Shown: positions 27,249 to 54,489, numbered from the stretch's first letter. The stretch is DNA of 64,000 bases from Ignavibacteriota bacterium (GCA_963801355.1 CAWDEM010000008.1:160001-224000); one strand, 5' to 3'. Notes: a model not told the origin generated them from the sequence alone. Made by a program: numbers and translations.

Positions 27249-27255
27249 ATTTCCC

Positions 27256-27284
27256 TTGACAAATCGATATTCCTGCCCTATATT
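27256..27284 (+). promoter_or_regulatory. Sigma70 promoter of the glycan-utilisation operon
   Basis: TTGACA(27256-27261)-17 nt-TATATT(27279-27284). Confidence 0.85.
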
Positions 27285-27288
27285 TCCA

Positions 27289-27302
27289 TGTAAACGTTTA
27301 CA
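27289..27302. promoter_or_regulatory. LacI-family operator 1
   Basis: Perfect palindrome TGTAAACGTTTACA with central CG, over the expected transcription start. Confidence 0.88.
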
Positions 27303-27321
27303 ATTCTTCGTATCAGGATGA

Positions 27322-27335
27322 TGTAAACGTTTACA
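27322..27335. promoter_or_regulatory. LacI-family operator 2
   Basis: Identical TGTAAACGTTTACA 33 bp downstream of operator 1. Confidence 0.88.
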
Positions 27336-27445
27336 GATGTTTTTCGCTCGTTGTCAACGATACCTTCCTGCAGCGAGCTTCTTCAATTTCAGAGCTGGTT
27401 AATAGTCCACCTAACACCATCACCACACAATCAACAGAGGTCTTT

Positions 27446-30400
27446 ATGGGCACAATGCGCCGATTGACAATTCCCCTGGTACTGATCCTCGCAGTCTGCT
27501 CTCTTGCCAACGCCCAGGTGTTGTGGCGTTCTGTCGCAAGCGGCAACTGGGGGGCCATCACAACCTGGGAGTATTCCACCGATTGGGGGGGGACGTGGGG
27601 AGTTCCTCCTGCGGCTCCAGCCACGCGTGATACAGCCAGTGGGTTTATCATCAATACCGGTCACACGGTGGTCGTGGAAGCAAGTCCGAAGTACTGCGGC
27701 GATCTGTTGGTCAAAGCAGGTGGAGTTCTCACGACGAACGTCAAGCAGCCCACAAGTGACATCCGTTACATCCGCATCAAGGGGACTCAGTTGACGGTGG
27801 ACGGAGTCTTTGGATTTGCAGTCGATCCGTCCGACAGTGCGGATGTGCTCAGCCTGCAGGTATACGGTCCGAACCAGACGCTGGTTATCAAGGGTTCGGG
27901 CACGATAAACATCTGTCGCATCCGTCCACATACAGGAGCCGGGAGAACGAATATCGGAGTGGAATTCGAGACCAACGCGACGATCACCTATATCGGATCG
28001 ACCGGCACAGGTGGCGCGGGTATCTACTCTGCTAATGATGCAAACAATGACAATATCACATTCGCTGTGAATCCGGGGCGGACGGTCACGATGGTTGACG
28101 GTTGCAACCTCGCGACCAGTTCGAGCACATCGACTGACGGCACTGCCAGCACAACATTCAACATTGGCGGTACAGTGAACATGCTCGGCGGAAACTTGAA
28201 CCTCCGCGGTGCTGCCGGGAAGAACATAGTGCTGAACGTTACCGGCACGCTGAATGTCGGCGGGAGCGTCTATCCCACCGGCACGACAGGCGTGACGAGC
28301 ACGATGAATGTTTCGGGTACAATGAATACCGGTACCCTCGGAAAAGGGACGCTGTACTTTGACGCCCCGGCGCAGCTTGTAACCGGAGCAGGCACCTTCA
28401 CGGTAGGCCAAGGTGCGACGTTCCGGACGGGTTTGCCTCAGGGTCTTCCTGCCTCGGGCGGCCAGATCCGGACCAACACCGTGACATTCAGTCCGGGTGC
28501 CAACTATGCCTACGTCGGGACCGCTGCGCAAACAACGGGCGCACTTCTTCCCGTACATGTCAGAGGGCTCGCGGTTGCCAACGCGGCCGGCGTAACGCTC
28601 TCGAAGAGCACCCTTGTGGATTCCACACTCACGTTGACGAGTGGCGCTCTCCTCACCGGAGCTGACACACTGGCTGTCGGACCCGGAGGAGAAGTCGAGC
28701 GGACAAGCGGGTATGTTGATGGCAATCTCGCAAAGCCCACTCCCGGCGGCGCCACGACTTTTGAAGTCGGAGCGGCCGGCGGGTATTCGCCGGTCGTTGT
28801 CAACGTGACATCCGGTTCCGGATATGCCGCGGTGAAAGCGGTCAATGGCAGCCATCCGAACCTCATCAACAGCGCGCTAGCATTGAAGCGCTACTGGAAG
28901 CTAGCGAATATGGGGATCACGTCGGCTGATCTGACTTTTGCCTATCCCGCGGCGGATGTGCAGGGAACCGAGACTGCATATGTCGGTGCGCGGAATACGA
29001 CAGGCAAGGAGTGGAGCAAATATACCACGACAGTCGACGCCGTGGCGCACACCGCAACGGTGACCGGCGCCACAGTCGCATCAGACTGGACGCTCGGGGA
29101 ACCGCGTGCGTTCTCGCCGTTTGACGATCCGGCTGCCTTGATCGTCCCCAATGCGCTCAGGCCAATGACACTTGACGGGAAGCTCGACGAGTCGGAGTGG
29201 GCTTCGGCGCCGACGTTGCTCTTTGGCAACGGCGCCTACCTGAAGAAGGGGATGGGAGAGCAGACGGTGACCGGAGGTTTCGACATCAAGGCCACCTACG
29301 ACTACTGGGATCAGGGTGTGTTCTACGGCACCTTCCATCGGCCGAACACTGACAGTTCTCTTGCAAAGGTGAAGTTCCTGCGCAAGGGTGTGAACCTGTA
29401 CATCGGCATACAGTCGGACGACAAGAGTATCTGCAAGTTCGACTGGGAAGGCGACGGACTGTTCGTCAAAATCAAGCGGTCGAACGGAAACGATCTGGAA
29501 TACAAGCTGTACTACCAGAACATCGGCACCGCGGCCGACACGATCCGGTACGAAGGCCCCGGAGGGTTGACCAACTTTGGCGACGGAGCGGGGTATCTCA
29601 TGACCGGCTCCACAGCCAACGACACGACGAATGTGGACAATGGATACTCAGCCGAGTTGATGATCAAGTTGGATTCGCTCGGCTACACCGCCACGCTTGA
29701 CACGGTGAAGCTGTCGATGGCGGTGTTCGATCCTGACGGGTACCAGCACCCGATGAACTCCTACGACACGACGGCGGGATCATACTACAAGTCGTGGTGG
29801 GGGAGTGAATGGGGTGGAGTCTACCGCTCGCTCCTCTTCTCACCGGAGCCGGTGAAGTTCGATGACCCGCCGGGTATTGCGGTGCAGAATGCTTTGCGCG
29901 CAATGACGGTGGACGGCAAACTTGATGAGTCGGAGTGGGCCACCGCTCCCACACTCGCCTTTGGCAACGGTGCCTTCGTGAAGAAGGCTGCCGGCCAGAA
30001 GACGGTGACCGGGGAATTCGACATCAAAGCCACGTACGACTACTACGACCAGGGCAAGTTCTACGGCACGTTCCATCTGCCGAACACGGATAGTTCTCTT
30101 GCGACGGTGAAGTTCCTGCGCAAGGGTGTGAACCTGTACATCGGCATACAGTCGAACGACAAGAGTATCTGCAAGTTCGACTGGGAAGGCGACGGACTGT
30201 TCGTGAAAATCAAACGGTCGAACGGGACCGATCTGGAATATAAGCTGTATTACCAGAACATCGGGACCGCGGCCGACACGATCCGGTACGAACCACCCGC
30301 AGCGAACTACGGTGAAGGGGCAGGCTATCTCTTCGCCGGTTCGAAGGTTAATGACACGACGGGCGTGGACAAAGGCTACTCAGCCGAGTTGATGATCAGG

Positions 30401-31633
30401 CTCGACTCGCTCGGGTACAAGGCCACGCTCGACACGGTGAAGCTGTCGATGGCGGTGTTTGATCCTGACGGGTACCAGCACCCGATGAACTCCTACGACA
30501 CGACGGCGGGATCGTACTTCAAGTCGTGGTGGGGGAGTGAATGGGGCGGAGTCTACCGGTCGCTGACGTTCTCGACGGAGCCTGTGAAGTTTGACGACCC
30601 CGATACCGTATTCGCGCCTACCGCCACCGGGACAATTACGGTTGACGGTGTGTTGGACGAGGCAGACTGGGCAAGAAGGTCTACACATCTGCTCTTCGGC
30701 AACGGTGCCTTCCTGAAGAAGGCATCCGGCCAGAATACGGTGACCGGAGAATTCGACATTAAAGCCACGTACGACTACTGGGATCAGGGTGTGTTCTACG
30801 GCACATTCCATCGGCCGAACACGGATAGTTCACTTGCAACGGTGAAGTTCCTGCGCAAGGGAGCAAACCTGTATATCGGCATCCAATCGGACGACAAGAG
30901 TATCTGCAAGTTCGACTGGGAAGGCGACGGGATGTTCCTGAAGATCAGGCGCGCGAACGGGACCGATGTAGAGTTCAAGCTGTACTACCAGAACACCGGT
31001 ACAGCGGCCGACACAATCCGGTACGAGCCACCCGCGGCCAATTACGGTCTGGGAGCGGGCAAGCTCGCTTCGGGTTCGAAAGCAAACGACACGACGGGTG
31101 TGGACAACGGGTACACGGCAGAATTGATGGTTAAGCTGGATTCTCTAGGCTATCTGCCGACGGCGCGTAACGTCCAGCTGTCGATGGCGGTGTTTGACCC
31201 CGACGGGTACCAGCACCCGATGAACTCCTACGACACGACGGCAGGATCGTACTACAAGTCGTGGTGGGGAAGCGAGTGGGGTGGGGTGTGGCGCGTCGTT
31301 TCCTTCGACAACCTCCTGGGAGTTGAGGGCGAACCGGGTGTCATTCCGCAGGTGTACGCTCTGCACCAGAACTTCCCGAATCCATTTAATCCCAGCACGC
31401 GAATTCGCTTTGACGTGCCGGCGGCGAGCACGGTCCGCATTGCCGTCTTCGACGTCACCGGCCGTGAAGTGGCATCGTTGGTGCAGGGGGATTATGCTCC
31501 CGGCACGTACACAACGACATTTGACGCCAGCAGGCTCGCGAGCGGCGTGTACTTCTACAGGATGATGGCATTCGGTGTGGAAGGTGGCGGTGCTGCCTTC
31601 GTCACTACGAACAAGTTGGTGCTTTTGAAATAG
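27446..31633 (+). CDS. Large T9SS-secreted protein: Gly/Thr-rich beta-stalk, three CBM9/DOMON-like repeats and type A CTD
   Basis: Signal peptide; T(L/V)DG.LDE..W, LYIGIQS.D and GY(S/T)AELM motifs three times; LHQNFPNPFNPST...ASGVYFYRM...KLVLLK. Confidence 0.8.
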   Translation: MGTMRRLTIPLVLILAVCSLANAQVLWRSVASGNWGAITTWEYSTDWGGTWGVPPAAPATRDTASGFIINTGHTVVVEASPKYCGDLLVKAGGVLTTNVKQPTSDIRYIRIKGTQLTVDGVFGFAVDPSDSADVLSLQVYGPNQTLVIKGSGTINICRIRPHTGAGRTNIGVEFETNATITYIGSTGTGGAGIYSANDANNDNITFAVNPGRTVTMVDGCNLATSSSTSTDGTASTTFNIGGTVNMLGGNLNLRGAAGKNIVLNVTGTLNVGGSVYPTGTTGVTSTMNVSGTMNTGTLGKGTLYFDAPAQLVTGAGTFTVGQGATFRTGLPQGLPASGGQIRTNTVTFSPGANYAYVGTAAQTTGALLPVHVRGLAVANAAGVTLSKSTLVDSTLTLTSGALLTGADTLAVGPGGEVERTSGYVDGNLAKPTPGGATTFEVGAAGGYSPVVVNVTSGSGYAAVKAVNGSHPNLINSALALKRYWKLANMGITSADLTFAYPAADVQGTETAYVGARNTTGKEWSKYTTTVDAVAHTATVTGATVASDWTLGEPRAFSPFDDPAALIVPNALRPMTLDGKLDESEWASAPTLLFGNGAYLKKGMGEQTVTGGFDIKATYDYWDQGVFYGTFHRPNTDSSLAKVKFLRKGVNLYIGIQSDDKSICKFDWEGDGLFVKIKRSNGNDLEYKLYYQNIGTAADTIRYEGPGGLTNFGDGAGYLMTGSTANDTTNVDNGYSAELMIKLDSLGYTATLDTVKLSMAVFDPDGYQHPMNSYDTTAGSYYKSWWGSEWGGVYRSLLFSPEPVKFDDPPGIAVQNALRAMTVDGKLDESEWATAPTLAFGNGAFVKKAAGQKTVTGEFDIKATYDYYDQGKFYGTFHLPNTDSSLATVKFLRKGVNLYIGIQSNDKSICKFDWEGDGLFVKIKRSNGTDLEYKLYYQNIGTAADTIRYEPPAANYGEGAGYLFAGSKVNDTTGVDKGYSAELMIRLDSLGYKATLDTVKLSMAVFDPDGYQHPMNSYDTTAGSYFKSWWGSEWGGVYRSLTFSTEPVKFDDPDTVFAPTATGTITVDGVLDEADWARRSTHLLFGNGAFLKKASGQNTVTGEFDIKATYDYWDQGVFYGTFHRPNTDSSLATVKFLRKGANLYIGIQSDDKSICKFDWEGDGMFLKIRRANGTDVEFKLYYQNTGTAADTIRYEPPAANYGLGAGKLASGSKANDTTGVDNGYTAELMVKLDSLGYLPTARNVQLSMAVFDPDGYQHPMNSYDTTAGSYYKSWWGSEWGGVWRVVSFDNLLGVEGEPGVIPQVYALHQNFPNPFNPSTRIRFDVPAASTVRIAVFDVTGREVASLVQGDYAPGTYTTTFDASRLASGVYFYRMMAFGVEGGGAAFVTTNKLVLLK
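29120..31312 (+). repeat. Three tandem intragenic repeats of ~735 bp
   Basis: FDDP codons start at 29120, 29858 and 30590 (spacings 738 and 732 bp); long identical DNA blocks such as gacaagagtatctgcaagttcgactgggaaggcgacgg in all three copies. Confidence 0.95.
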
Positions 31634-31651
31634 TTGAATTGATGCAGACGA

Positions 31652-31693
31652 AGAGGTGGGGCTTTCTTTCATGACGGAAGAAAGCCCCACTCT
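31652..31693 (+). other. Strong intergenic stem-loop without a U tract
   Basis: gtggggctttctttc-atgac-ggaagaaagccccac. Confidence 0.75.
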
Positions 31694-31737
31694 GCTGCCC
31701 GGAGGAGTTTCCAGACTTCGTAGAGGCACACCCGGCC

Positions 31738-32769
31738 GTGACCACAATCAAAGAAGTAGCCAGGAAGGCAGGCGTTTCGATTGCCACAGTTTCCCGCGTG
31801 TTGAACAACGTGGGAGCGGTGGATGAACGGACACGGGCGCTTGTGTCAAAGACCGTGGTGGAACTTCGGTACGTCCCCAATCCACTGGGGCGCGGTCTGA
31901 GCAGGCAAAAAACGGAAGCCATCGGTTTGCTGCTCCCCGATCTGTTCGGCGAGTTCTTCTCGGAAGTGATTCGCGGGGCTGACCAGACGGCGCAGCTCCA
32001 CCGGTATCATCTGATGGTCTCCAGTTCTCATAACAGCCGCGCGGAGATCGAAGCTGCAATCCGGATGATGCGCGGACGTGTTGACGGTCTCCTGATCATG
32101 TCTCCGCATATCGACGAGCGGACTCTGAGGGAGAACCTCCCCCAGCACCTTCCTGTCGTACTCATCAATGCGCGGGTTTGTGGAGACGACTACGACTCGT
32201 ACAACGTCGACAATCTTGCCGGGTCGGCGGCAATGGTGGAGCACCTTGTTACTCACGGTCACCACCGCATTGCGCTGATCAAGGGGATCGAAGACAACAT
32301 CGACGCACTTGAGCGTCACCAGGGGTACCGGAAAGCGCTCGCCGCGGGCGGGATTGAGCAAGTACCCGAATACGAGATTGCCGGTGACTTCACGGAGGCG
32401 TCGGGATACAACGCCGTCCGTCAGATTCTTCAGCTTGATCCGCGGCCAACGGCGATATTCGCGTGCAACGACACTGCGGCGATCGGTGCCATGAGCGCGC
32501 TCCGGGGAGCAGGCCTCCGCGTCCCCGACGACATTGCCGTGGCAGGCTTTGATGATATTCCCATCAGTTCATATCTGAGACCTTCACTCACCACGGTACA
32601 CGTGGGCATCGATAGAGTGGGAGTGCTTGCGGTGGAAACGCTTCTCCGCGCACTCGCAGAACGGAATGCCCACCGGAAGGAACACCGGATGATCCCCACG
32701 ACACTGGCCCTCCGTGGATCCTGCGGATGTCCCGAAGTGAGCCTGCCGGTGTCCGCTGTTGCATCATAA
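31738..32769 (+). CDS. LacI-family transcriptional repressor
   Basis: TIKEVARKAGVSIATVSRVLN HTH, Y.PN..GR.L hinge, PDDIAVAGFDD, PSLTTV; GTG start. Confidence 0.96.
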   Translation: MTTIKEVARKAGVSIATVSRVLNNVGAVDERTRALVSKTVVELRYVPNPLGRGLSRQKTEAIGLLLPDLFGEFFSEVIRGADQTAQLHRYHLMVSSSHNSRAEIEAAIRMMRGRVDGLLIMSPHIDERTLRENLPQHLPVVLINARVCGDDYDSYNVDNLAGSAAMVEHLVTHGHHRIALIKGIEDNIDALERHQGYRKALAAGGIEQVPEYEIAGDFTEASGYNAVRQILQLDPRPTAIFACNDTAAIGAMSALRGAGLRVPDDIAVAGFDDIPISSYLRPSLTTVHVGIDRVGVLAVETLLRALAERNAHRKEHRMIPTTLALRGSCGCPEVSLPVSAVAS

Positions 32770-32855
32770 GCGCGGGGAGCCATCCCCGGTCCCATGTACA
32801 AATGAGCAAATGCATACAGGAGTGTTCAGTCAACATACCATTGAGGGAGGTACGT

Positions 32856-34724
32856 ATGTATCAACGGCGACTCCTTGTGAGCGTGGCGCTGGTGCTGTGC
32901 GGAGTCACGCTTGCGTTGGGGCAGTATTCCCCGCGTAAGGATTATGTCTGGGCGCGGGATATTTCCGTGGCGGCGAGCCCTGCCATCACGCTTGACGGGC
33001 TGCTGACGGAAGCAGTCTGGGCGAAGGCGGAATCGATTCAGATTGCCTATGGTGTCAAAGACGGCAATCCCAACAGTGGATGGCTCACCAGAACACTCGG
33101 CGGAATACCGGCCGATAGTCCCCGCGCCACCATCAAGTTTCTTTCCGATAAGACCACCAATCGCGTTTACATCGCCGTGATTGCCCAAGACAGTTCGGTT
33201 GGCGGTGCCGGATGGGAGAACGCTGACGGCCTTCTGGCGGGGATCTGTGATCGTAAGCAGAAGGCCTCGAGTCAGGTGACACTGCACCGTGATATCTTCA
33301 TATCCTGGGTCGATTCCTCGGCCGAGGGGGCACTCCCGAATCTCACCGGCGGATCTCTGCCGAAAGCGGGGATCGTGACTGCCGCGGCTTCGGTAAATGG
33401 TGTCTCCAACAGCGACACGAATGCAACGGGTCAGCGTGTCGCTGACCTGGGCTATACGATCGAGCTGGCCGTGGCACTCGACAGCATTGGATACAGGGCG
33501 AATAGCGATACGGTGGATGAGGTTCAGATCAACATAGATATCTGGGATGCCGACTGGCGCGGTGCCGCGGATGCTATCTTCTCGTGTGCTTGGTGGGGTC
33601 ATGAGTGGGGAAATGACGGCGGGGGCATGGCGGGACGAATACTTGTGCGGCAGGATGTCAACGTCAATACCGCCACTCTTCCCGTGTACGGCCCGGACCT
33701 AGTCATCAAGAACGGGAGCAACTATCCGGCGATCGCCGTGGACGGTAGTCTGAACGACGAGGTCTGGAGCGCGGTGGCTTCGTTCGATATCCAGTATGGA
33801 AACGCCGCTCTGCGTGCGACGTATCCGACTATCGGGAAGGACCGGAGCGGCGAGTGGAACCCCCAAATGAGTCAGCCCGTCGTAAATGCCGGTGTGACCA
33901 AAGTGAAGCTGACGTTCCAGGGAGACAAGCTGTTTCTCGGTGCCGATGTGAGCGACCGCTCTCTAAATAGCTTCGCGAGCGCCACTGCGTTTGATGGTGT
34001 CCAACTCACAATGACGCTCCCCATCGACTCACTCCGCGACAAACTTGCCCACGCCCTGCCGGATCGGCGCTTCGGGATTGCCCTCAATGCGGGGTCTCCA
34101 ATGCTGCTCTGGGACGGGGTTGACTGGACTTCGACCATTGCGTACGGGATCGCGCTGAAGACCGGCTCGACGATCGACAACAACAACGACGTGGACTTGG
34201 GGTACACGGTTGAAGCTTCCTTTGACCTGTCAAAGATGGGGTACACGGCGGGCCAGCAGAACAAAACAGTGGCAATCGGCGTGACCGCGTACGATTATGA
34301 CATCACTCCCACAAGTAGCCCGGGGGTGTGGGCATGGTGGTTCCGAGAAGCGCCGGGAAAAGCCAGTCCCGCATTCTGTGTCCTTGACAATAGCGCCTTG
34401 CTTGTGAGTGTGGCTGATGACCCGGTTGCAGGGTTCCCCCTGGAATTCACACTGCGGGGGGCCTATCCGAATCCCTTCAATCCCACAACGACATTCTGTT
34501 TCGACCTGCCGGAAGCCGGGCGGGCAACCCTGGTCCTGTACGACGTCCTCGGACGCATGGTGCGGCACATCGATCTCGGACGGTTGGAGAGCGGTTCGTA
34601 CGAACGACCGGTGGATGCTTCGTCGCTTGCGAGCGGTGCATATGTGAGCCGGATCGAGTTTGTTGCGGAGCGGACCGGTGCGCGGAGGTTGTCGGAGAGC
34701 ATTCGTCTGATGCTTGTCAAATAG
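32856..34724 (+). CDS. T9SS-secreted protein with two CBM9/DOMON-like domains
   Basis: Signal peptide; ITLDGLLTEAVW and IAVDGSLNDEVW, GYT(I/V)E motifs; AYPNPFNPTT...ASGAY CTD; GGAGG RBS. Confidence 0.75.
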   Translation: MYQRRLLVSVALVLCGVTLALGQYSPRKDYVWARDISVAASPAITLDGLLTEAVWAKAESIQIAYGVKDGNPNSGWLTRTLGGIPADSPRATIKFLSDKTTNRVYIAVIAQDSSVGGAGWENADGLLAGICDRKQKASSQVTLHRDIFISWVDSSAEGALPNLTGGSLPKAGIVTAAASVNGVSNSDTNATGQRVADLGYTIELAVALDSIGYRANSDTVDEVQINIDIWDADWRGAADAIFSCAWWGHEWGNDGGGMAGRILVRQDVNVNTATLPVYGPDLVIKNGSNYPAIAVDGSLNDEVWSAVASFDIQYGNAALRATYPTIGKDRSGEWNPQMSQPVVNAGVTKVKLTFQGDKLFLGADVSDRSLNSFASATAFDGVQLTMTLPIDSLRDKLAHALPDRRFGIALNAGSPMLLWDGVDWTSTIAYGIALKTGSTIDNNNDVDLGYTVEASFDLSKMGYTAGQQNKTVAIGVTAYDYDITPTSSPGVWAWWFREAPGKASPAFCVLDNSALLVSVADDPVAGFPLEFTLRGAYPNPFNPTTTFCFDLPEAGRATLVLYDVLGRMVRHIDLGRLESGSYERPVDASSLASGAYVSRIEFVAERTGARRLSESIRLMLVK

Positions 34725-34805
34725 GCTGTGCCTTTCCTGCATCGTCTCATGGAGGAGGCAGCGCTGCAACCGCCTCCTCTTCCTTTCCATGGTGGTGAGG
34801 AACGT

Positions 34806-37481: not shown

Positions 37482-37491
37482 AGGAGTTGCC

Positions 37492-40770: not shown

Positions 40771-40774
40771 TGCG

Positions 40775-41782
40775 ATGACACGAACCATACTGATAGCCGC
40801 GGCAGCGTTGCTGACCTGGTCGGTGCTTCACGGGCAGTCCAAGACCGGCACTTCGGTGGGACAATTCACACTCATTGAGCCGAGCGCCCGCTCTTCTGCA
40901 ATGGGAGGTGTGGGGGTGACCTCCTCTGCGGAGGCCATGTCTGCATACTACAACCCTGCTGCACTCGGCTCACTGCTCCAGTCAGACCTGCAGTTTACGC
41001 ACAACGTCTGGTTTGGCGACATCGTGCTAAACCATGCTGCGGCGGCGCTTCACCTCGGGGAGCGGAGCACCGTGGCCGTTGCCGTCACGCACCTCTCGTC
41101 AGGTGATATTGATGTGCGGACCGTGGAACAACCGATGGGGACCGGCGAACGCTATTCCGTCACAGACCTTCTGATCGGTGCCGGCTTCGGCATGATGATC
41201 ACCGACCGGTTCAGCTGCGGGATCCAGGTGAACTATGCCACCGAACGAATATGGCACAGCAGCATCGGACTCTTCTCTGTCAACCTGGGGACACTCTACC
41301 GGCTCTCGGAAGATGGCTTGCGCATCGGTGCCAGTCTGGTGAATTTCGGGACCAAGGGCGCATTCGATGGGACCGACCTGCGCGTACGGTACGATCTGGA
41401 TGCGTCGAGATACGGTGACAACGCGAGCCTGCCCGCTTCCCTCGTGACCGATCAGTTCGCCCTGCCGATTGTCTTCCGTGTCGGTCTGGGTTATCCCTGG
41501 CGCGTTGACAACGGCAACATTCTGGACGTGGCGGTGGAGGCAATAAACCCCAGCGACAACAGTCCCGCGATTAATGTAGGCGCGGAATGGTTTTACCGCG
41601 AGGTGTTTGCTCTGCGCGCCGGATATGCAGCCCTTTTCCAGACCGACAGCGACTTTGGTCTGACGCTCGGTGCGGGAGTTGTCTGGGACGGTCTGGGCAA
41701 TGATCTCCGGGTTGACTACAGCTGGGCCGACCACGCCCGCCTCGGCGGAGTCCAGCGGGTGACGCTGGGGATCGCTTTCTGA
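40775..41782 (+). CDS. PorV/PorQ-family outer-membrane beta-barrel
   Basis: SKTGTSVGQFTLIEPSARSSAMG, YYNPAAL, LP..FRVG, LRAGY, terminal Phe. Confidence 0.88.
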   Translation: MTRTILIAAAALLTWSVLHGQSKTGTSVGQFTLIEPSARSSAMGGVGVTSSAEAMSAYYNPAALGSLLQSDLQFTHNVWFGDIVLNHAAAALHLGERSTVAVAVTHLSSGDIDVRTVEQPMGTGERYSVTDLLIGAGFGMMITDRFSCGIQVNYATERIWHSSIGLFSVNLGTLYRLSEDGLRIGASLVNFGTKGAFDGTDLRVRYDLDASRYGDNASLPASLVTDQFALPIVFRVGLGYPWRVDNGNILDVAVEAINPSDNSPAINVGAEWFYREVFALRAGYAALFQTDSDFGLTLGAGVVWDGLGNDLRVDYSWADHARLGGVQRVTLGIAF

Positions 41783-41823
41783 TTCCCTTTCTGTTCTGAG
41801 CTCCTTTTCATTGAGAGCGTGTC

Positions 41824-44229: not shown

Positions 44230-44231
44230 CG

Positions 44232-46757: not shown

Positions 46758-46876
46758 CATCGATCGAATTCAGGGGCAAGCAGTTATGATTGTCTCTTGG
46801 TTAGAACAGCATGCAGGGGCTGGCATTGATCATCGGAAGAGTACATAGTCACTGGCACTCATGATTCTCCATTAGC

Positions 46877-48271
46877 ATGGTACGCACGCGCTCGCTCGCC
46901 ATATGTGGATTTCTCCTGCTTGCCTTCCTCTCCCTTCATTGCGGGGGGAGCGGCACCTCGACCGTTTCGAATTACGCCTCATGGGATCCGTTCCTCGACA
47001 CCCTGCAATCACGTACGCTGCAGTTCTTCCTGGCGACCGCTGATTCCACAACCGGTCTGAGTCCTGACCGATGGCCTTCCGCTTCACCCTCGAGCATCGC
47101 GGCGGTGGGATATGCCCTGACCGGATACCCCATTGCGGCGGAGAGGGGATTGATCACGCGCGCGGAGGCGGCCCGGCGTGTCCTGAATGTGCTGGAGTTC
47201 CTCTGGAAGCTCCCTCAAAGCGACCGGCCGGTCTCGACAGCCGGCTACCGCGGACTCTTCTATCATTTCATAGCGATGCAAACCGGGCTCCGTGTCTGGA
47301 ATTGTGAACTCTCCACGATCGACACAGGCCTGCTCATGGCAGGCGCTCTCTTCTGCCAGAGCTACTTCGATGCCGCGGAGCCGCAGGAGGCCGAGATCCG
47401 GGCGATGGCCGACAGTCTCTACCGGCGGGTCGACTGGCTCTGGGCGAGTGATGGGTCCCAGGGCATTCGTCTTGGCTGGTATCCCGAACGAGGGTTCGTG
47501 AAGAAGACCTGGACCGGTTACGATGAGGCGATGATCCTGTATATTCTTGCTCTCGGTTCACCGACCCATGCAATCCCGGCGGAGTCATGGAATTACTACA
47601 CCTCGACATATCTCTGGGCGGAGTACCAGGGGTCCGAGTTCGTCAGCTTTGGACCCCTCTTTGGACACCAGTACTCCCACTGCTGGATTGATTTCCGGGG
47701 GATTCAGGATGTGTATATGCGGTCCCGTGGCATTGACTACTTCGAGAACTCCCGGCGGGCAACCGCTTCGCAACGATCCTATGCAATTGCGAATCCGGCC
47801 GGATTTGCCGGCTATTCGGACAGCATCTGGGGGCTGACGGCGTGCGATGGTCCCCGCGACGTTGTTCTTCACGTCGAGGGGCGGGAGCGGAAGTTCCAAA
47901 CATATGCCGCCCGGGGAGTCTCGGTGGACTGGGTTAATGATGATGGGACAATTGCTCCCACTGCGGCGGGGGGATCCGTGGCATTTGCGCCGGAGCTCTG
48001 CGTTCCTGCCCTCAAGGCATTGCGGAACCGCCACGGGGACCGTCTCTTCCGGGAGTTCGGCTTCGCCGATGCGTTCAACATGACCTTCATTACCCCGGAA
48101 ACCCCGGCGGGGTGGTATGATGCGGATTATATCGGGATCGATCAGGGGCCGATTGCGGTCATGATCGAAAACCTCCGGAATGGTTTCGTGTGGGAGACCA
48201 TGAAGAAGAATCCATATGTTGTGAGCGGATTGAAGCGAGCAGGGTTCACCGGGGCATGGCTCCAGCATTGA
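46877..48271 (+). CDS. GH144 beta-1,2-glucanase, probable lipoprotein
   Basis: LSLH-CGG lipobox-like; SIAAVG, ELSTIDT, GYDEAM, GPLFGHQY, WGLTACDGP, DDGTIAPTA, GIDQGP. Confidence 0.88.
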   Translation: MVRTRSLAICGFLLLAFLSLHCGGSGTSTVSNYASWDPFLDTLQSRTLQFFLATADSTTGLSPDRWPSASPSSIAAVGYALTGYPIAAERGLITRAEAARRVLNVLEFLWKLPQSDRPVSTAGYRGLFYHFIAMQTGLRVWNCELSTIDTGLLMAGALFCQSYFDAAEPQEAEIRAMADSLYRRVDWLWASDGSQGIRLGWYPERGFVKKTWTGYDEAMILYILALGSPTHAIPAESWNYYTSTYLWAEYQGSEFVSFGPLFGHQYSHCWIDFRGIQDVYMRSRGIDYFENSRRATASQRSYAIANPAGFAGYSDSIWGLTACDGPRDVVLHVEGRERKFQTYAARGVSVDWVNDDGTIAPTAAGGSVAFAPELCVPALKALRNRHGDRLFREFGFADAFNMTFITPETPAGWYDADYIGIDQGPIAVMIENLRNGFVWETMKKNPYVVSGLKRAGFTGAWLQH

Positions 48272-48281
48272 GGGCTCTGGC

Positions 48282-51200
48282 ATGATGTTCACAATTCCCC
48301 TCCTCCTTGCCTTCCTTTTTTCTACAGTTCCTCAGACTGTTCCTGTGTCAGTCCTTCTGGATGATTTCTCGACGCTTGCCGGTTGGAAGACCATCGTTTC
48401 CGACGGGGCGGCGCTCAGGCTGGAAGCCGCCAGGGGAGCGTCCGGAATGTGTATGATGATGGAATTCGACCTGACCGGAGGGGCCGGCTACGTGATTGCG
48501 GAAAAGCCGTTCAACATCGATCTTCCCGCAGACTATCAATTCACGTTTGACCTCCGTGGAGAGACTCCGATCAACAACTTCGAGTTTAAGGTCATTGACG
48601 AATACGAAAACGTTCACTGGATAAAGAAGCTGAATGTCACCTATCCGACAGAGTGGACGAAGCAACGGATCAAGAAGCGGCATCTCAGCTTTGCCTGGGG
48701 TCCGGCAGCGGGGAAAGAACTCCGGCATGTGCGTGCGCTGCAGTTCGTCGTGTCAGCGGGAACGGGAGGGAGGGGGAGAGTCTGGGTGGACAATTTCCGG
48801 TTCGAGCGCCTGGATGACAGCGCTGCGGCCGGGGCAGTCGCCGTTGTGATCAATGGCGAAGCACGGATTGACGCTGCCGGAACTGTCCTGACATTCTGGG
48901 CCTCCGGTGCCGCTCCCGATTCCCTGGTCATCGACTTCCATCACACGAAGGAGGTAGGCGGAGCCGTGATCGACTGGGACAGTGCGGATTATGCGAGCTC
49001 CTATGACATACTCACGTCGGATGATGGAAATGACTGGAATCATGTATATGGTGTTCAGCGTGGGAAGCCGGGGCGCGCGTACATCCCCTGTGGCGAGGCG
49101 GAGGGGAGATTCTTGAAATTGCGCACTCGTGGCGACAGTCGCGGCCGGGGTGCGGTCATGCTGAGAATGTACATCAAAGATCCCTCCTTCTCTTCCTCAT
49201 CCAACAACCTGTACCGGACAATTGCTGGAGAGGCGCCTCCAGGTTATTTTCCGAAGTACTTCCTGGACCAGCAATCGTACTGGACGGTGGTCGGAGTGAG
49301 CGGGGACGCCAAAGAGGCGTTGATCAACGAGCAGGGTCAGATCGAGGTGGACCGTGTGCGGTTTTCCCTTGAGCCCTTCCTCTTCGTCGATGGGAGGCTG
49401 GTAACCTGGAATGACGTCAACACAACCCCTTCGCTGCGCAAAGGCTATCTGCCCATTCCTTCCGTCACGTGGAACTACAGAGGCGCGGTGACATTGACGA
49501 TCGAAGCAGTCGCAGCCGGAGCACGCGGACAGTCGTTCCTCGGCATCCGGTATTCTCTGACAACCAGGGTGGAAAACCTCCACGGGAAGCTGTTTGTAGC
49601 GATCCGGCCATTCCAGGTCAACCCGCCCTGGCAATTCCTGAACATTCAAGGTGGGACAGCGCGCGTCGACACTATCTCGTACCGGGACGGAATGGTCTTC
49701 GTGGACAGCACCATGATAATCCCGATGAAGGCGCCGACCGGATTCGGCGCACTGGAGTTCGACGAGGGTGATATTACTGAATATCTTGCACGGGGCGAAT
49801 TGCCGCGCGCGCAACACGTGTACGATCACTCCGGCCATGCCTCGGCAGGGCTCTCGTATGATTTTCGTCTCGACCGGAGTGAGACAAAGGAAGTACACTT
49901 CGTCATCCCCTTCCATGGCCGGGACCCTTCTGCGATTCCGGAGTTTGACGAGTTGATGCAGGCGAGCGTGAAGGCATGGGAGGGCAGTCTTGATAGGGTG
50001 GAGTTCTCCCTGCCTCCTTCCGCGCAAGATGTCGCGCGGACACTCAAATCGAATCTCGCATACATTTTCATCAATCGTGATGGTCCCGGAATTCAGCCCG
50101 GCTCGCGGAGCTACGAGCGTTCGTGGATTCGCGACGGATCGTTGACCTGTGCCGCTCTTCTGCGGCTCGGGCACCAGGAGGAGGTGCGGGAGTTCATCGA
50201 CTGGTATGCACGGGGACAATTCCCGAATGGCAAGGTCCCGTGCGTGATTGATGCCCGGGGTTCCGACCCGGTGCCCGAACATGACAGCCACGGAGAATTC
50301 ATCTATGCAATACGGCAGTACTTCCTCTTCTCAAAGGACACGGCCTGGCTGCGGGGGAAGTTTGACGGGGTGACCAGAGCAGTCCGCTACATCCAGTCTC
50401 TCCGCGCTGAGCGGAAGACGGAGGTGTACCGCACCGGAACGCCGGAGCAACGTGCCTGTTTCGGTCTGGTGCCGGAGTCCATCAGTCACGAGGGATATTC
50501 TGACGTTCCGCGTCACTCCTACTGGGATTGTTTTTTTGTTCTGCGCGGGCTGAAAGACGCCACAGCAATCGCGGAGGCACTCGGCGAAAACGCTTTAAGC
50601 CGGGAGTTCGCTGAAGAACGGGACGATTTCCAGCGGGATCTCTATGCATCGATGCGTCTGGCGATGCACACAACCGGCGTCGACTATATCCCCGGCTGTG
50701 TGGAGCTCGGTGATTTTGACGCGACATCCACGACGGTCGGACTCGCGCCGGGCGGAGAACTCGGAGCGATACCGGAACCGCAGTTGCACAACACGTTCGA
50801 CCGGTACTACGGGTTCTTCCAGAAACGGAAGGCCGATGCCATGTTCGTCAATTACACGCCGTACGAGGCCCGCATCATCGGATCCTTCGTCCTGCTGGGG
50901 GAGAAGGAGCGTGCGGCGGATCTCATGCAGTTCCTTCTCAACGATCGCCGGCCCACTGCATGGAATCACTGGGCCGAGGTTGTGTGGCGGCATCCGGCAA
51001 CCCCGAAATATATCGGCGACATGCCCCACACATGGGTGGGATCTGATTTCATCCGGTCGGTGCTCACGATGTTCCTGTACGATCGCGAACGGGATTCGGC
51101 TCATGTCCTGTGCGCCGGAATTCCGGACCGGTGGATCCTCGACCCTGCCGGTGTCAGAGTCGAGCGGCTTCCCACATATCACGGGACGATCAGCTACACA

Positions 51201-51398
51201 TTGCGGAGAAGCGGGAAGAGTGTTCTCGCTGCTGTATCAGGCAGCTTTGACGCTGCGCATCATAGATTGCTCATTGCTTCCCCCCTGGCGAGCAGGCTTC
51301 GCGGCGTGGAGGTTAATGGCCGGCCGGTGCCGGTCCTTGAGAGTCGTGAAATTATCTTGAAGGCATTACCCGCACAGGTGGAGTTCATGTACCGATGA
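48282..51398 (+). CDS. Exported CBM-like + discoidin (F5/8C) + six-hairpin (alpha/alpha)6 glycosidase-like protein
   Basis: Signal peptide; LVIDF...IDW...YASSYDILTSDDG.DW discoidin; IQPGSRSYERSWIRDG, EHDSHGE, PESISHEGY, HSYWD, GDMPHTW. Confidence 0.72.
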   Translation: MMFTIPLLLAFLFSTVPQTVPVSVLLDDFSTLAGWKTIVSDGAALRLEAARGASGMCMMMEFDLTGGAGYVIAEKPFNIDLPADYQFTFDLRGETPINNFEFKVIDEYENVHWIKKLNVTYPTEWTKQRIKKRHLSFAWGPAAGKELRHVRALQFVVSAGTGGRGRVWVDNFRFERLDDSAAAGAVAVVINGEARIDAAGTVLTFWASGAAPDSLVIDFHHTKEVGGAVIDWDSADYASSYDILTSDDGNDWNHVYGVQRGKPGRAYIPCGEAEGRFLKLRTRGDSRGRGAVMLRMYIKDPSFSSSSNNLYRTIAGEAPPGYFPKYFLDQQSYWTVVGVSGDAKEALINEQGQIEVDRVRFSLEPFLFVDGRLVTWNDVNTTPSLRKGYLPIPSVTWNYRGAVTLTIEAVAAGARGQSFLGIRYSLTTRVENLHGKLFVAIRPFQVNPPWQFLNIQGGTARVDTISYRDGMVFVDSTMIIPMKAPTGFGALEFDEGDITEYLARGELPRAQHVYDHSGHASAGLSYDFRLDRSETKEVHFVIPFHGRDPSAIPEFDELMQASVKAWEGSLDRVEFSLPPSAQDVARTLKSNLAYIFINRDGPGIQPGSRSYERSWIRDGSLTCAALLRLGHQEEVREFIDWYARGQFPNGKVPCVIDARGSDPVPEHDSHGEFIYAIRQYFLFSKDTAWLRGKFDGVTRAVRYIQSLRAERKTEVYRTGTPEQRACFGLVPESISHEGYSDVPRHSYWDCFFVLRGLKDATAIAEALGENALSREFAEERDDFQRDLYASMRLAMHTTGVDYIPGCVELGDFDATSTTVGLAPGGELGAIPEPQLHNTFDRYYGFFQKRKADAMFVNYTPYEARIIGSFVLLGEKERAADLMQFLLNDRRPTAWNHWAEVVWRHPATPKYIGDMPHTWVGSDFIRSVLTMFLYDRERDSAHVLCAGIPDRWILDPAGVRVERLPTYHGTISYTLRRSGKSVLAAVSGSFDAAHHRLLIASPLASRLRGVEVNGRPVPVLESREIILKALPAQVEFMYR

Positions 51399-52684
51399 AC
51401 AGGCTTCTGTGGCGAGCATATCCGGTCTGCCTGCTGTTGTCCCTTGCCGCCCTCATCAGTGGGTGCGACGGCCGTTCTCCGGAAAAAACCGTCATCCGTT
51501 TCTGGGCGCTGGGGGCGGAGGGGGACAACATCCGGCAGCTCATGCCGGAATTCGAGCGGCGGAATCCCGGAATCTCCGTGAAAGTGCAATCACTCCCCTG
51601 GACCGCCGCACACGAGAAACTGCTGACCTCCTATGCGGGGAATTCGATGCCCGATCTGTTCCAGCTGGGGAACACGTGGATCCCGGAGTTCCAGGTGCTC
51701 GGAGCGATCGAGGACCTGGACCCGTGGATCAACACATCGCGCGTTGTCAGCGAGCAATCGTTCTTCCCTGGTGTCTGGGCGACCAACCGCGCCGACAGTG
51801 CGATCGTTGGAATCCCCTGGTACGTCGACACGAGGGTCCTGTTCTACCGGAAGGATCTCTGTGCCGCCGCGGGGTACGTCCGGCCTCCGGCCACATGGGA
51901 CGAGTGGAAGGATCTGTCGCGGAAGCTCAAGCAGGCTGCCGTGCGTGAGGGAAGACAGGCCTATGCGATTTTGCTCCCGACCAACGAGTGGGCTCCGCCT
52001 ACGATCCTTGCGCTGCAGCGGGGCGCTTCTTTTCTGAAGGAACAGAACACGCGTGGTGCGTTCAGTGACTCACTTTTCCGTGACGCCTTTGAGTTCTACT
52101 GCAGCTTCTTTGCCGAGCGCCTGGCGCCGATCGGAGTCACCCAGGTCACCAATGTCTACCAGGGTTTTGCAGAAGGGTTCTTCGCGATGTACATCACCGG
52201 CCCGTGGAACGTCGGCGAGTTTCGCCGGCGCCTTCCGCCGGAGATGCGGGATCGATGGATGACTGCGCCGTTGCCCGGTCCCGGGCCCGCTGGGACGGGT
52301 GTGTCTCTGGCAGGAGGATCGAGTCTGGCCATGGCAAGGTCGGCGTCAGACAAGGATGCAGTCTGGAAGCTGATCGAGTATCTATCCGATGCCCCTCAGC
52401 AGCGGGAGTTCTACCGGATTACGGGCAATCTCCCTGCACGCAAAGAGGTGTGGGATGACACGCTTCTGGCTGTCGACCCCTATCTGCATGCCTTTCGGAT
52501 CCAGCTTGGCGCGCTTGCCTCTCCCCCCGCAATTCCGCAGTGGGAGCAGATAGCCATGAAGGTACAGGATTATGCCGAGATCGGGTCGGTGGGAAAGACG
52601 CCCGTGCCCGAAATTCTCGCCCGGCTTGACCGGGATGCAGACGTGATACTCGAAAAACGCCGCTGGCTGCTCTTCGGTGAATAG
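51395..52684 (+). CDS. Sugar ABC transporter substrate-binding lipoprotein
   Basis: LISG-C lipobox; PDLFQLGNTW, PWYVDTRVLFYRKDL, AMYITGPW, GGSSL; ATGA overlap with the upstream gene. Confidence 0.93.
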   Translation: MNRLLWRAYPVCLLLSLAALISGCDGRSPEKTVIRFWALGAEGDNIRQLMPEFERRNPGISVKVQSLPWTAAHEKLLTSYAGNSMPDLFQLGNTWIPEFQVLGAIEDLDPWINTSRVVSEQSFFPGVWATNRADSAIVGIPWYVDTRVLFYRKDLCAAAGYVRPPATWDEWKDLSRKLKQAAVREGRQAYAILLPTNEWAPPTILALQRGASFLKEQNTRGAFSDSLFRDAFEFYCSFFAERLAPIGVTQVTNVYQGFAEGFFAMYITGPWNVGEFRRRLPPEMRDRWMTAPLPGPGPAGTGVSLAGGSSLAMARSASDKDAVWKLIEYLSDAPQQREFYRITGNLPARKEVWDDTLLAVDPYLHAFRIQLGALASPPAIPQWEQIAMKVQDYAEIGSVGKTPVPEILARLDRDADVILEKRRWLLFGE

Positions 52685-53558
52685 TCAAAGACCATATGCG
52701 CTTGTGCTCTTCCTGGCGCCGGCCCTGACGGCGATAGGACTCTTCTTTTTTATCCCTGTTCTTGCCGCCCTGGTTCTCAGCTTCACTGATTTCGATATCT
52801 ATGCGCTCGGCAATTTTTCGGTGGCGCGGTTTGTCGGCCTTCGCAACTATCTGCAGATTGCCGGGGATCCGCTCTTCTGGAAGGCCCTGAAAAACACCCT
52901 CTACTTCCTGCTGGCAGGCGGTCCGCTTTCCATTGCTGTTTCGCTTGGTGCGGCGCTCCTCTTGAACGCGAAGATGGTCCGGTGGAAGCCGGTCTTCCGG
53001 TTCGTCTATTTTGCCCCGGTCGTGACCACTCTTGTCGCGGTTGCCGTGGTCTGGCGCTTTGTGTACCATCCCCGCTTTGGTCTGTTGAACTATGCGCTCG
53101 GGCTTGTGGGGATAAATCCCATCGACTGGCTGGGGGACCCGAACTGGGCCATGCCGGCGATGATCATCCTGGCCGTCTGGAAGAATTTTGGCTACAACAT
53201 GATCATCTTTATCGCCGGACTTCAGAATATCCCGGAATCTCTGTACGAAGCTGCGAGCATCGATGGCGCCGGGTCCTGGCAGCGTTTCCGCACGATTACG
53301 TTGCCACTCCTGGCTCCGACGACGTTGTTCATCACGATCATCACGATGATCGGGTATTTCCAGTTCTTTGCCGAGCCATATGTCATGACCCAGGGGGGGC
53401 CGCTGAACAGCACCCTCAGCATTGTCATGCTCATGTACCAGCAGGGCTTCCGGTGGTGGAGTATGGGGTATGCCGCCGCGATCGCGTTCGTTCTGTTCCT
53501 GTTCATTCTCCTTGTCTCCGTGGCGCAAACGAGATTACAGCGAGGGAGGGCCGGCTGA
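52677..53558 (+). CDS. Sugar ABC transporter permease (MalF/UgpA type)
   Basis: FVGLRNY, WKNFGYNM, LYEAASIDGA (EAA loop), GYAAA. Confidence 0.95.
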   Translation: MNSQRPYALVLFLAPALTAIGLFFFIPVLAALVLSFTDFDIYALGNFSVARFVGLRNYLQIAGDPLFWKALKNTLYFLLAGGPLSIAVSLGAALLLNAKMVRWKPVFRFVYFAPVVTTLVAVAVVWRFVYHPRFGLLNYALGLVGINPIDWLGDPNWAMPAMIILAVWKNFGYNMIIFIAGLQNIPESLYEAASIDGAGSWQRFRTITLPLLAPTTLFITIITMIGYFQFFAEPYVMTQGGPLNSTLSIVMLMYQQGFRWWSMGYAAAIAFVLFLFILLVSVAQTRLQRGRAG

Positions 53559-54376
53559 TGCGCATCGTGAAATCCTTGGGGCTGCATGGAGTACTGCTCA
53601 TGCTGGCTGTCGTCACGATGGCGCCGCTGTTCTGGATGGTTTCCGCGTCGTTCATGGCCGGTGGCGAGGCAAGCTCGTTCCCTCCGCCGTTCCTTCCGGC
53701 GCACCCGACGATGCAGCAGTACGTCGAGCTTTTCACGCGGCTAAATATCACACACTATGTCATCAACAGCGCCTTGCTTGCACTCACCGTGACAGGGATC
53801 TCGTTGCTGGTCAACTCCATGGCGGGATATGCGTTTGCGAAATACCGTTTCGCGGGCCGGGAGAAACTGTTCAAGCTATTGATTGCTTCCATGGTGATCC
53901 CGGCCCAGGTGACAATGCTTCCGCTGTTTCTTATGCTCAACAAGATGGGGCTTGTCAACACGTATCTCGGTGTCATTATCCCGGGCCTGGCGAGCATTTT
54001 CGGGATCTTCCTCATCCGCCAGTTCGCGCTTTCAATTCCGGACAGTCTGATCGAGGCCGCGAGAATGGACGGAGCCGGGGATTTCCGCATTTACTGGTCG
54101 GTCATTCTTCCCCTCTGCAAGCCCATACTCATCACGCTCGCAATTTTCACCTTCATGGGAACCTGGAACGATTTTCTCTGGCCGCTCATCATCATGACAG
54201 ATGACTCGATGTACACGCTCCCTGTGGCGCTCGCGAGTCTGTCGGGCGAGCACGTGCAGGATACCGAGCTCATGATGGCCGGATCGGTGATGACCGTCCT
54301 CCCGGTGATGCTGGTGTTCCTTGCCCTCCAGAAGTACTACATCAGCGGGATCATGGCTGGAGGAGTGAAAGAGTAG
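53558..54376 (+). CDS. Sugar ABC transporter permease (MalG/UgpE type)
   Basis: AGYAFAK, IEAARMDGA, WNDFLWPL, GGVKE; TGATG coupling with the previous gene. Confidence 0.95.
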   Translation: MRIVKSLGLHGVLLMLAVVTMAPLFWMVSASFMAGGEASSFPPPFLPAHPTMQQYVELFTRLNITHYVINSALLALTVTGISLLVNSMAGYAFAKYRFAGREKLFKLLIASMVIPAQVTMLPLFLMLNKMGLVNTYLGVIIPGLASIFGIFLIRQFALSIPDSLIEAARMDGAGDFRIYWSVILPLCKPILITLAIFTFMGTWNDFLWPLIIMTDDSMYTLPVALASLSGEHVQDTELMMAGSVMTVLPVMLVFLALQKYYISGIMAGGVKE

Positions 54377-54392
54377 GTCCCATGAAAACGCA

Positions 54393-54418
54393 GAGGCCCT
54401 TCATTTCGGAAGGGCCTC
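54393..54418. terminator. Stem-loop between convergent genes, probable end of the operon
   Basis: gaggcccttc-atttcg-gaagggcctc, perfect 10-bp stem; no clear U tract on the plus strand. Confidence 0.6.
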
Positions 54419-54489
54419 GCGGTGAGCGACCTTGTTTCAAGGTCGGCTGTTATCTTATGTCACTGTCGGGCAATGTGCCGACTAGTAGA

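Follow-up and report, generated by a model that had tools for sequence, protein, structure and literature searches.

A candidate LacI-repressed beta-1,2-glucan regulon without SusD in an Ignavibacteriota bacterium

Described systems and the locus

Ignavibacterium album carries the closest described counterpart of the locus analysed here, a run of 13 co-directional open reading frames (ORFs g1-g13, all on the + strand, positions 27446-54376) in a 64,000-nucleotide stretch, called the window, of an Ignavibacteriota bacterium (GCA_963801355.1 CAWDEM010000008.1:160001-224000). For the I. album SGL (GH144) cluster (IALB_1177, 1179, 1185 and 1187), Kobayashi et al. 2022 (PMC8861115) put forward, as speculation, the same route of beta-1,2-glucan from outside the cell to the cytoplasm, with a GH35 enzyme acting on sophoro-oligosaccharides (Sopns) and a lone TonB-dependent transporter (TBDT) "with no biochemical evidence". 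The passages of that paper at hand do not mention homologues of g5, g6 or g10, and its Fig. S1 legend gives grey arrows to genes of hard-to-predict function. The gene sets are the same, and Ignavibacterium sp. (locus L158) shows the order TBDT-g5-PorV/Q-GH144-g10-GH35-GH144(CTD)-solute-binding protein (SBP), where CTD is the C-terminal domain of type IX secretion system (T9SS) cargo. The window locus differs in lacking the GH35 transglycosylase, in having two additional CBM9-like tailed binders, and in carrying a LacI gene inside the set. The pathway idea is thus already in print, and the window locus is another such cluster, without GH35.

Polysaccharide utilisation loci (PULs) of the SusC/SusD type in Bacteroidia share with the window locus a co-localised, regulated gene set that comprises surface binders, surface and periplasmic enzymes, an importer of the inner membrane, and a TBDT with a CarboxypepD_reg N-terminal domain and a surface partner of its own; Bacteroidales PULs for beta-1,2-glucan additionally share a core of GH144 and g10. 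In contrast to these PULs, the window locus has no SusD and its TBDT falls outside the SusC hidden Markov model (HMM), with a partner that is a T9SS-type protein plus a barrel rather than a lipoprotein. Its binders are likewise T9SS cargo and not lipoproteins, an ATP-binding cassette (ABC) importer stands where Bacteroidales use a major facilitator superfamily (MFS) permease, and its GH94 phosphorylase is of the cyclic-glucan-synthase (Cgs) type rather than the SOGP type. In the T9SS of Porphyromonas gingivalis, PorZ-PorQ and PorU-PorV are attachment pairs, and type B CTD proteins are held by PorP/SprF-like barrels. The predicted likeness of g5-g6 is to PorZ-PorQ, a secreted protein that keeps its CTD and is held at the surface by the PorV/PorQ-family barrel of a neighbouring gene, whereas g5 and g6 adjoin a TBDT in sugar-utilisation loci that are separate from the secretion genes. 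The available part of the report on the Rhodothermus marinus alginate locus (PMC9530828) gives the same order of TonB receptor, T9SS-tailed hypA and PorV/PorQ-family hypB, with another substrate, a shorter hypA (2181 nt) and genes labelled hypothetical and left uninterpreted. The SOGP cluster of Listeria innocua (lin1839-1843), as far as the accessible text describes it (PMC13731917, PMC8861115), shares a Lin1841-like SBP, two permeases and a cytoplasmic GH94; unlike our organism, Listeria is Gram-positive with no outer-membrane stage, its GH94 is of the SOGP type (~1100 aa; g7 has 32 bits to 5h3z), and it has a GH3 beta-glucosidase.

We read the window locus as a LacI-repressed regulon for the use of bacterial beta-1,2-glucan in an Ignavibacteria-type bacterium without SusD, and give this reading a probability of about 0.7 (Table 1). 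In this scheme the CBM9-like binders g1 and g3 and the GH144 enzyme g8 would be exported by the T9SS and would bind and cut the polymer at the cell surface. Fragments would pass the outer membrane through the TBDT g4 working with g5, whose supersandwich is the likely glycan-binding part and whose divergent C-terminal tail would sit in its own PorV/PorQ-type barrel, g6, as PorZ does in PorQ. In the periplasm, the lipoprotein GH144 g9 and g10 would shorten the chains, g11-g13 would import Sopns with an ATPase encoded elsewhere, and cytoplasmic g7 would phosphorolyse them. The repressor g2 would bind the pair of palindromes that comes right after the promoter, from which a Sopn would probably release it.

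Table 1. Features of the locus, in window coordinates
Feature	Position	Strand	Description
Promoter	27256..27284	+	sigma70-like, TTGACA-17-TATATT, 11/12 consensus positions
Operators	27289..27335 (27289-27302; 27322-27335)		two exact copies of the LacI-type palindrome TGTAAACGTTTACA
g1	27446..31633	+	1395-aa secreted protein: signal peptide, N-terminal domain of no family, three ~230-aa CBM9-like repeats, T9SS type A CTD
g2	31738..32769	+	LacI-family repressor; LacI helix-turn-helix 58.9 bits, Peripla_BP_3 134.6 bits
g3	32856..34724	+	622-aa secreted two-domain CBM9-like protein with T9SS tail
g4	34806..37481	+	TBDT with CarboxypepD_reg N-terminal domain, plug and barrel; non-SusC by HMM
g5	37492..40770	+	1092-aa secreted all-beta protein: supersandwich (~47-560), FN3-like/beta-sandwich domains, divergent PorZ-like tail
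g6	40775..41782	+	PorV/PorQ-family outer-membrane barrel, probably a locus-specific paralogue
g7	41824..44229	+	801-aa leaderless GH94 phosphorylase, Cgs C-terminal type
g8	44232..46757	+	GH144 with ~320-aa N-terminal extension and T9SS type A tail
g9	46877..48271	+	GH144, probable lipoprotein (LSLHC-GG)
g10	48282..51398	+	1038-aa predicted periplasmic enzyme of no classified family: two beta-sandwiches (one F5/8-C), supersandwich, (alpha/alpha)6 barrel, C-terminal beta-sandwich
g11	51395..52684	+	ABC solute-binding lipoprotein (LISGC), Lin1841-like
g12	52677..53558	+	ABC permease; BPD_transp_1 78.3 bits
g13	53558..54376	+	ABC permease; start at MRIVKSLG, the listed ORF from 52982 being too long
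Hairpins	54393..54445 (54393-54418; 54427-54445)		two in tandem between convergent genes, 17 nt past the last stop codon

Judged by the matches of the enzymes and the binding protein and by synteny, beta-1,2-glucan is very probably the substrate of the locus. GH144 domains (PF10091) were recognised in g8 (257.2 bits) and g9 (269.6 bits), and g9 reached 495.4 bits against 8xul (XCC2207) and 153.9 bits against the endo-beta-1,2-glucanase 5gzh. To our knowledge, all characterised members of GH144 act on beta-1,2-glucan. The available text on XCC2207 of Xanthomonas states that it was cloned as XcSGL (PMC12102758). g7 is a full-length GH94 with supersandwich and catalytic domain (PF17167, 395.5 bits, 2-420 of 420; PF06165, 287.4 bits, 1-251 of 251), scoring 581 bits against the Cgs structure 8rf9, 455.3 bits against cellobiose phosphorylase (3qde) and 32.1 bits against SOGP (5h3z); without a SOGP_N match and at 801 aa, against ~1100 aa for SOGP-type GH94, it does not belong to the SOGP type. 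The absence of a leader agrees with the cytoplasmic place that the original prediction had given to GH94. In g11, SBP_bac_1 matched at 138.2 bits, 3uor at 378.3 bits and Lin1841 (5ysb) at 228 bits, with the next named match at 124 bits, and Lin1841 is reported, in the part of the source available, as the Sopn-binding protein of Listeria (PMC13731917). The two GH144 enzymes, a GH94 nearest to Cgs and an SBP related to Lin1841 thus lend good support to the predicted substrate.

The surface and envelope assignments are of mixed firmness. T9SS type A tails were found by profile searches on g1 (Por_Secre_tail, PF18962, 31.0 bits; TIGR04183, 29.5 bits), g8 (28.5 and 29.6 bits, respectively) and g3 (23.9 bits on TIGR04183, cut-off 23; 25.1 bits on PF18962, below its cut-off of 27), and the genome holds a T9SS core with SprA and the sortase PorU, directly beside which lies a PorV/Q-family tblastn match. 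The CBM9 label is borderline, with 23.5 bits for g3 on CBM9_1 (PF06452) and 21.0 bits for a g1 repeat (profile positions 26-170 of 185) against a cut-off of 23.4; one half of g3 by itself gave 17.2 bits, three repeats are discernible in the g1 translation, and CBM9_1 occurs in 29-44% of the members of the nearest Atlas clusters of g3. The predicted T9SS-exported CBM9-like binders therefore stand as tailed proteins and only marginally as CBM9. A Rep_trans match in g1 (34.9 bits) was rejected as spurious, as no single stretch passes and the match sits in the CBM9-like repeats. The N-terminal extension of g8 (44340-45200) gave a sub-threshold CBM30-like match (19.1 bits, E 0.0013) and may be a further glycan-binding module. 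For g9, predicted to be a lipoprotein GH144, the family holds and a Cys follows the signal sequence, while the lipobox LSLHC is atypical.

Regulation and transcription units

The layout originally described, 13 co-directional genes with short gaps or overlaps behind one sigma70-like promoter with two LacI-type operators and ending at a 3' hairpin, was confirmed, with the correction that the LacI gene is itself the second gene of the set. The first operator copy begins 5 nt past the -10 hexamer. Shuffled sequences expect 0.04 sites of TGTAAACGTTTACA at up to two mismatches and none of 100 shuffles had two, and at up to one mismatch the 4.8-Mb genome contains no copies beyond these two. The palindrome recurs at the same stringency in 31 related loci with 42 sites, none within a mapped locus gene, against a chance expectation that we estimate at ~0.5 sites in 3.15 Mb. 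Forty of the 42 precede a homologue of LacI, SBP, g3, g5 or g10 by 25-230 nt; another lies 482 nt upstream of a GH94 homologue, and the last has no mapped gene downstream.

The operator also ties the glucanase-receptor half of the locus to the ABC half. Lack of conserved synteny between the two had been named as a refutation of the original reading, and their synteny is conserved. SBP orthologues (at least 40% identity) were linked to GH144, GH94, g10 or a g4-type TBDT in 21/28 loci of at least 10 kb, the loci without such a link being L086, L096, L099, L102, L105, L106 and L111. In L025, L090, L091, L094, L106 and L110, separate palindrome sites belong to the ABC unit and to the unit of LacI, binder and trio (the trio being the TBDT, g5 and the PorV/Q barrel). 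Because the halves are linked in these 21 loci and share the operator where they are split, they appear, on this comparative evidence, to be one regulon across lineages.

Whether the 13 genes form one transcription unit is less certain, and several observations weigh against it. With the chosen starts, for which those of g3 (32856), g4 (34806), g5 (37492) and g13 (53558) were shifted to an internal Met before the signal peptide or membrane segment, the junctions from g1 to g10 measure 104, 86, 81, 10, 4, 41, 2, 119 and 10 nt in order, and the last three (g10/g11, g11/g12, g12/g13) are overlaps of 4, 8 and 1 nt. Three of the gaps, at 86-119 nt, are long enough to contain internal promoters; the ABC genes of relatives often form a separate unit with its own operator; and neither 3' hairpin has a + strand U-tract behind it. 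Two or more operons, for instance g1-g2, g3-g8 and g9-g13 with LacI directly controlling only the first, would fit the gaps after g1, g2 and g8 (104, 86 and 119 nt), the arrangement in relatives, and the position of the window operators upstream of g1 only. However, most of the twelve junctions are at most 41 nt or overlapping, no strong + strand promoter-like site lies within 27300-53900, and internal terminator-like sites are no commoner than in shuffles (16 versus 14.6 in 27000-46900), so that we regard several operons as rather unlikely, if the strongest of the alternatives considered. The promoter in Table 1 ranks best among four promoter-like sites in 27000-46900, a number not above chance (7.1 in shuffles). 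No RNA run containing window positions 40000-49999 was listed, and three metatranscriptome runs yielded short contig pieces only; of 19 from X1, 18 were less than 99% alike and 14 fitted in part, and they thus come from relatives and are uninformative on expression or co-transcription.

At the downstream end, the paired hairpins have a folding energy of -38 kcal/mol (z -4.8), and none of 200 shuffles was equally stable. The genes on either side are unrelated: those upstream encode ArsR and methyltransferases, and those downstream encode a small tailed protein, a methyltransferase for DNA repair and a UvrD helicase. Given these flanks and the hairpins at the end, the boundaries first proposed stand.

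The outer-membrane trio and the SusD-type alternative

The original prediction had staked itself on the absence of SusD. SusD/RagB models (PF07980, PF14322) matched none of the 13 proteins at E up to 0.01, and no match was found in the genome, whose completeness is rated at 100% from marker genes. The receptor g4 scored 68.5 bits on the SusC/RagA model TIGR04056 against a cut-off of 368.25, through residues 67-190 of the N-terminal domain only, and so fails that model, as expected of the non-SusC receptor that had been claimed.

The clearest support for the proposal that the locus does the job of a SusC/SusD PUL with different parts comes from loci anchored on g10, of which 80 were kept out of 590 confirmed. 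Among the 61 with at least 7 kb upstream of g10, 27 have a SusD upstream module, accompanied by MFS in 27, ABC in 0, SOGP-type GH94 in 19, Cgs-type GH94 in 0 and GH35 in 21; 13 have the trio, accompanied by MFS in 0, ABC in 9, SOGP-type GH94 in 0, Cgs-type GH94 in 9 and GH35 in 3. No locus has both, and 21 have neither in range. Two Bacteroidales loci (L159, L199) show the order SusC-SusD-surface protein-GH144(-GH144)-g10-MFS-GH35-SOGP-type GH94; with 25 more loci, they indicate that this order is fixed in Bacteroidales beta-1,2-glucan PULs and that g10 is also a core member of classical PULs.

g5 belongs to no Pfam family, and its PDB sequence matches were chance antibody matches at E 0.018 or worse. 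An AlphaFold model built from a 40-sequence alignment (pLDDT 80.2, pTM 0.68) contains a supersandwich that aligns with the glucoamylase N-domain of 1lf6 (VIA Z 20.2, rmsd 2.6 over 234 residues) and also resembles dextran dextrinase (Z 20.1) and the GH94 domain of Cgs (Z 18.6), without an (alpha/alpha)6 catalytic barrel in the model. Whole-model Foldseek returned mostly FN3 arrays at TM <0.2 and was set aside; the usable domain match came from an aligner independent of Foldseek. The tail of ~100 residues resembles PorZ (5m11, probability 0.99) and PorU by Foldseek, and a VVPNPY motif is conserved in 40/40 aligned sequences. The barrel g6 scored 168.3 bits on NF033709 (cut-off 90) and stayed under the equivalog cut-offs of PorV (76.4 versus 250) and PorQ (88.3 versus 220). 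As PorU is encoded elsewhere in the genome, next to a PorV/Q-family match of its own, g6 seems to be an additional barrel specific to this locus. When g6 was modelled together with g5 residues 975-1092, three runs gave ipSAE 0.93 and the best of three controls gave 0.00, with partner pLDDT of at least 73 and agreement of the runs in at least 90% of contacts; the ipSAE mark is reached by 116/157 solved and 2/215 mismatched pairs, a calibration that holds no more than roughly here, since own alignments were used.

Conservation of the three genes as neighbours is well documented in our sample. Relatives of g5 were located in 71 loci labelled Ignavibacteria, Kryptoniota, Eisenbacteria, Calditrichia, Rhodothermales, Balneolales, Zhuqueibacterota and Neomarinimicrobiota. 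Where the contig had room, a g4-type TBDT lies directly upstream of g5 in 52/53 loci and a g6-type barrel directly downstream in 54/56, and the whole trio is adjacent in 46/47 loci with room on both sides; the exceptions in these counts are L018 and L028. The GH144 set accompanies it in 18 of the 71, all with g5 identity of at least 51%, while homologues of GH144, GH94 and g10 were not seen in the 40 loci at 28-38% g5 identity. Eight of these 40 distant loci were scanned and all hold the trio, with other sets of carbohydrate-active enzymes (CAZymes) in at least six. Beside the trio lie GH16-CTD with GH3, GH1 and MFS (L039), GH16-CTD with CBM6 (L046), GH13 with CBM20-CTD (L070, L072, L073), a sulfatase, an esterase and GH5-CBM6 (L061), or ABC permeases with a GH63-like enzyme (L035); L043 has no CAZyme within range. 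The trio thus also occurs in laminarin-type and starch-type loci. In all eight, a gene for a SurA-like peptidyl-prolyl isomerase (Rotamase) stands directly after the barrel or before the TBDT, and none is present in the window locus. The genome of the window itself contains five g5-type loci and ~20 PorV/Q paralogues, and TBDT paralogues lie at a distance of 3-5 kb from many of the latter.

From the models and this conservation, we marginally favour the view that g5 binds glycan at the surface as partner of the TBDT and is anchored in g6 by a retained tail. Several points count against this interpretation. The supersandwich fold is common to many enzymes and is by itself no proof of function; the PorZ C-terminal match of the tail is weak (E 0.004); and the tail matched neither PF18962 nor TIGR04183, that is, it falls below the type A CTD models. 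PorV-type barrel-CTD complexes have already been solved, and the g6-g5 score may reflect likeness to these rather than binding of this particular pair; with own alignments and such complexes in existence, the pass therefore shows that likeness only. Moreover, the trio is not a general replacement for SusD and runs parallel to SusCD. We had expected SusD and g5 to exclude each other across genomes, which was not borne out: of the phylum's genomes, 301 were compared, and a g5 relative occurs together with SusD in 77, g5 only in 55, SusD only in 89 and neither in 80, so the exclusion is confined to homologous loci. In the same sample, family f20 (63 genomes) is without SusD and without a g5 relative, and some families carry both nearly throughout (f28, g5 in 35/49 and SusD in 48/49; f18, 5/5 each).

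A different assignment would make g6 an additional PorV that shuttles g1, g3 and g8 during secretion, with g5 a mere surface or matrix protein and the TBDT importing alone as in Proteobacteria. The family of g6, the three type A CTD cargo proteins in the locus and the abundance of PorV/Q paralogues are compatible with this, as are loci labelled Gemmatimonadaceae and Thermoanaerobaculia that have the same enzymes with a TBDT or an ABC system and no trio. Nevertheless, g5, g6 and the TBDT stay adjacent in 46/47 loci while other tailed cargo varies between loci, the g5 tail is unlike type A cargo tails and is the part predicted to lie in the barrel, and the trio takes the place of SusC/SusD in homologous loci, never together with SusD; a pure secretion role for g6 is thus unlikely. 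The loci just mentioned (L140, Gemmatimonadaceae label, and L095, Thermoanaerobaculia label) carry LacI, the operator palindrome, GH144, g10 and ABC genes outside the FCB group, L140 with a different TBDT type and L095 without a matched TBDT, which suggests that an enzyme-regulator core moves between phyla.

g10, pathway gaps and implications

Profile search recognised the F5/8-C domain alone in g10, and no PDB sequence matched at E up to 1. The model (pLDDT 85.6, pTM 0.79) resembles GH15, GH65, GH78, GH94 and GH116 at Z 24-27 and at most 15% identity, none standing out, which fits the original prediction of an unclassified hydrolase in that g10 is, by its model, an (alpha/alpha)6 enzyme assigned to no classified family. 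Its orthologues have ordinary signal peptides, and more than 4,400 relatives exist, at most named "discoidin domain-containing protein". Among loci with a length of 12 kb or more, 56/64 have a GH144 gene with g10, in most cases immediately upstream, and by label of the metagenome-assembled genomes the g10 loci include Bacteroidales, Ignavibacteria, Gemmatimonadaceae and Phycisphaerae. From this genomic association, we infer that g10 is a periplasmic glycosidase acting on beta-1,2-gluco-oligosaccharides. A literature search, with subscription journals outside its coverage, found no report on the g10 family.

The claim that the locus is "complete" was overstated, and two gaps speak against a self-contained pathway. 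Profile searches found no ABC ATPase gene among the 13 locus proteins, so that of the predicted ABC importer, compared with the CUT1 type for carbohydrates, the binding protein and two permeases are present and the ATPase is missing from the locus. The genome's sole MalK/MsmK-type ATPase lies outside the window (G000:C8:1982107), beside another LacI gene and a TBDT-g5-PorV/Q locus (G000:C8:1968900-1982274), and probably serves several sugar importers of the genome. In addition, the locus shows no evident enzyme for the cleavage of sophorose, although other parts of the genome have GH3 and GH1 genes, and no GH35 gene was found in locus or genome. To these must be added, on the side of the substrate, that g7 is only moderately nearer to Cgs than to cellobiose phosphorylase by bit score (581 versus 455). 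A locus for another beta-glucan, cellodextrin or laminarin, with the beta-1,2 label over-read from family names, would accord with this score and the cellobiose phosphorylase size of g7 (801 aa), the borderline CBM9-like domains of no set specificity and a g10 without assignable specificity, but it is very improbable in view of the strong GH144 matches, one of them to a solved endo-beta-1,2-glucanase, an SBP far nearer to Lin1841 than to other named binding proteins, a GH94 nearer to Cgs, three other GH94 paralogues in the genome (29-39% identity) that could serve other glucans, and a gene set that agrees with the I. album SGL cluster as far as the available text gives it (PMC8861115).

A broader proposal joins two parts: that TBDT, g5 and PorV/Q barrel are a distinct and widespread glycan-import machine, with a T9SS cargo protein as substrate-capturing partner, its uncleaved tail in a private barrel (the place of the lipid-anchored SusD of SusCD systems), and partners of its own (T9SS-tailed binders, ABC importer, Cgs-type GH94), and that g10 founds a new GH family dedicated to beta-1,2-glucan breakdown. 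Taken jointly, these remain tentative, at slightly under even odds. The searchable literature, including PMC13543919 and PMC5317091, yielded no description of the trio as a unit, the only trace being an uninterpreted drawing in PMC9530828, and none of the two part sets or the GH144-g10 pair. The trio, the alternative part sets and this pair are the parts worth following up.

Beyond the locus, a 301-aa T9SS-tailed protein (54490-55395, - strand) converges on its end and is followed by a 1187-aa ORF without a Pfam family (55741-59304, + strand). A second T9SS-related patch lies at 11472-19320, with a PorV/Q-family tblastn match unrecognised by Pfam at 1e-5 (11472-12284, - strand), a BNR/sortilin-like protein with a FlgD_ig tail (13350-14915, - strand) and an S8 subtilase that carries BNR repeats as well as a T9SS tail (16288-19320, + strand).

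PUL predictors seek susC/susD pairs and miss loci of this kind, so that glycan use is underestimated in Ignavibacteria, Kryptoniota, Calditrichia, Rhodothermales and related groups, which are common in hot springs, soils and sediments. Symbionts and pathogens produce beta-1,2-glucans, and these loci would mark the bacteria that recycle them. The g10 family, with its thousands of relatives, is an obvious target for enzyme discovery. If the trio is indeed an uptake machine, it would link the T9SS directly to nutrient import and represent a second solution to the problem solved by SusCD.

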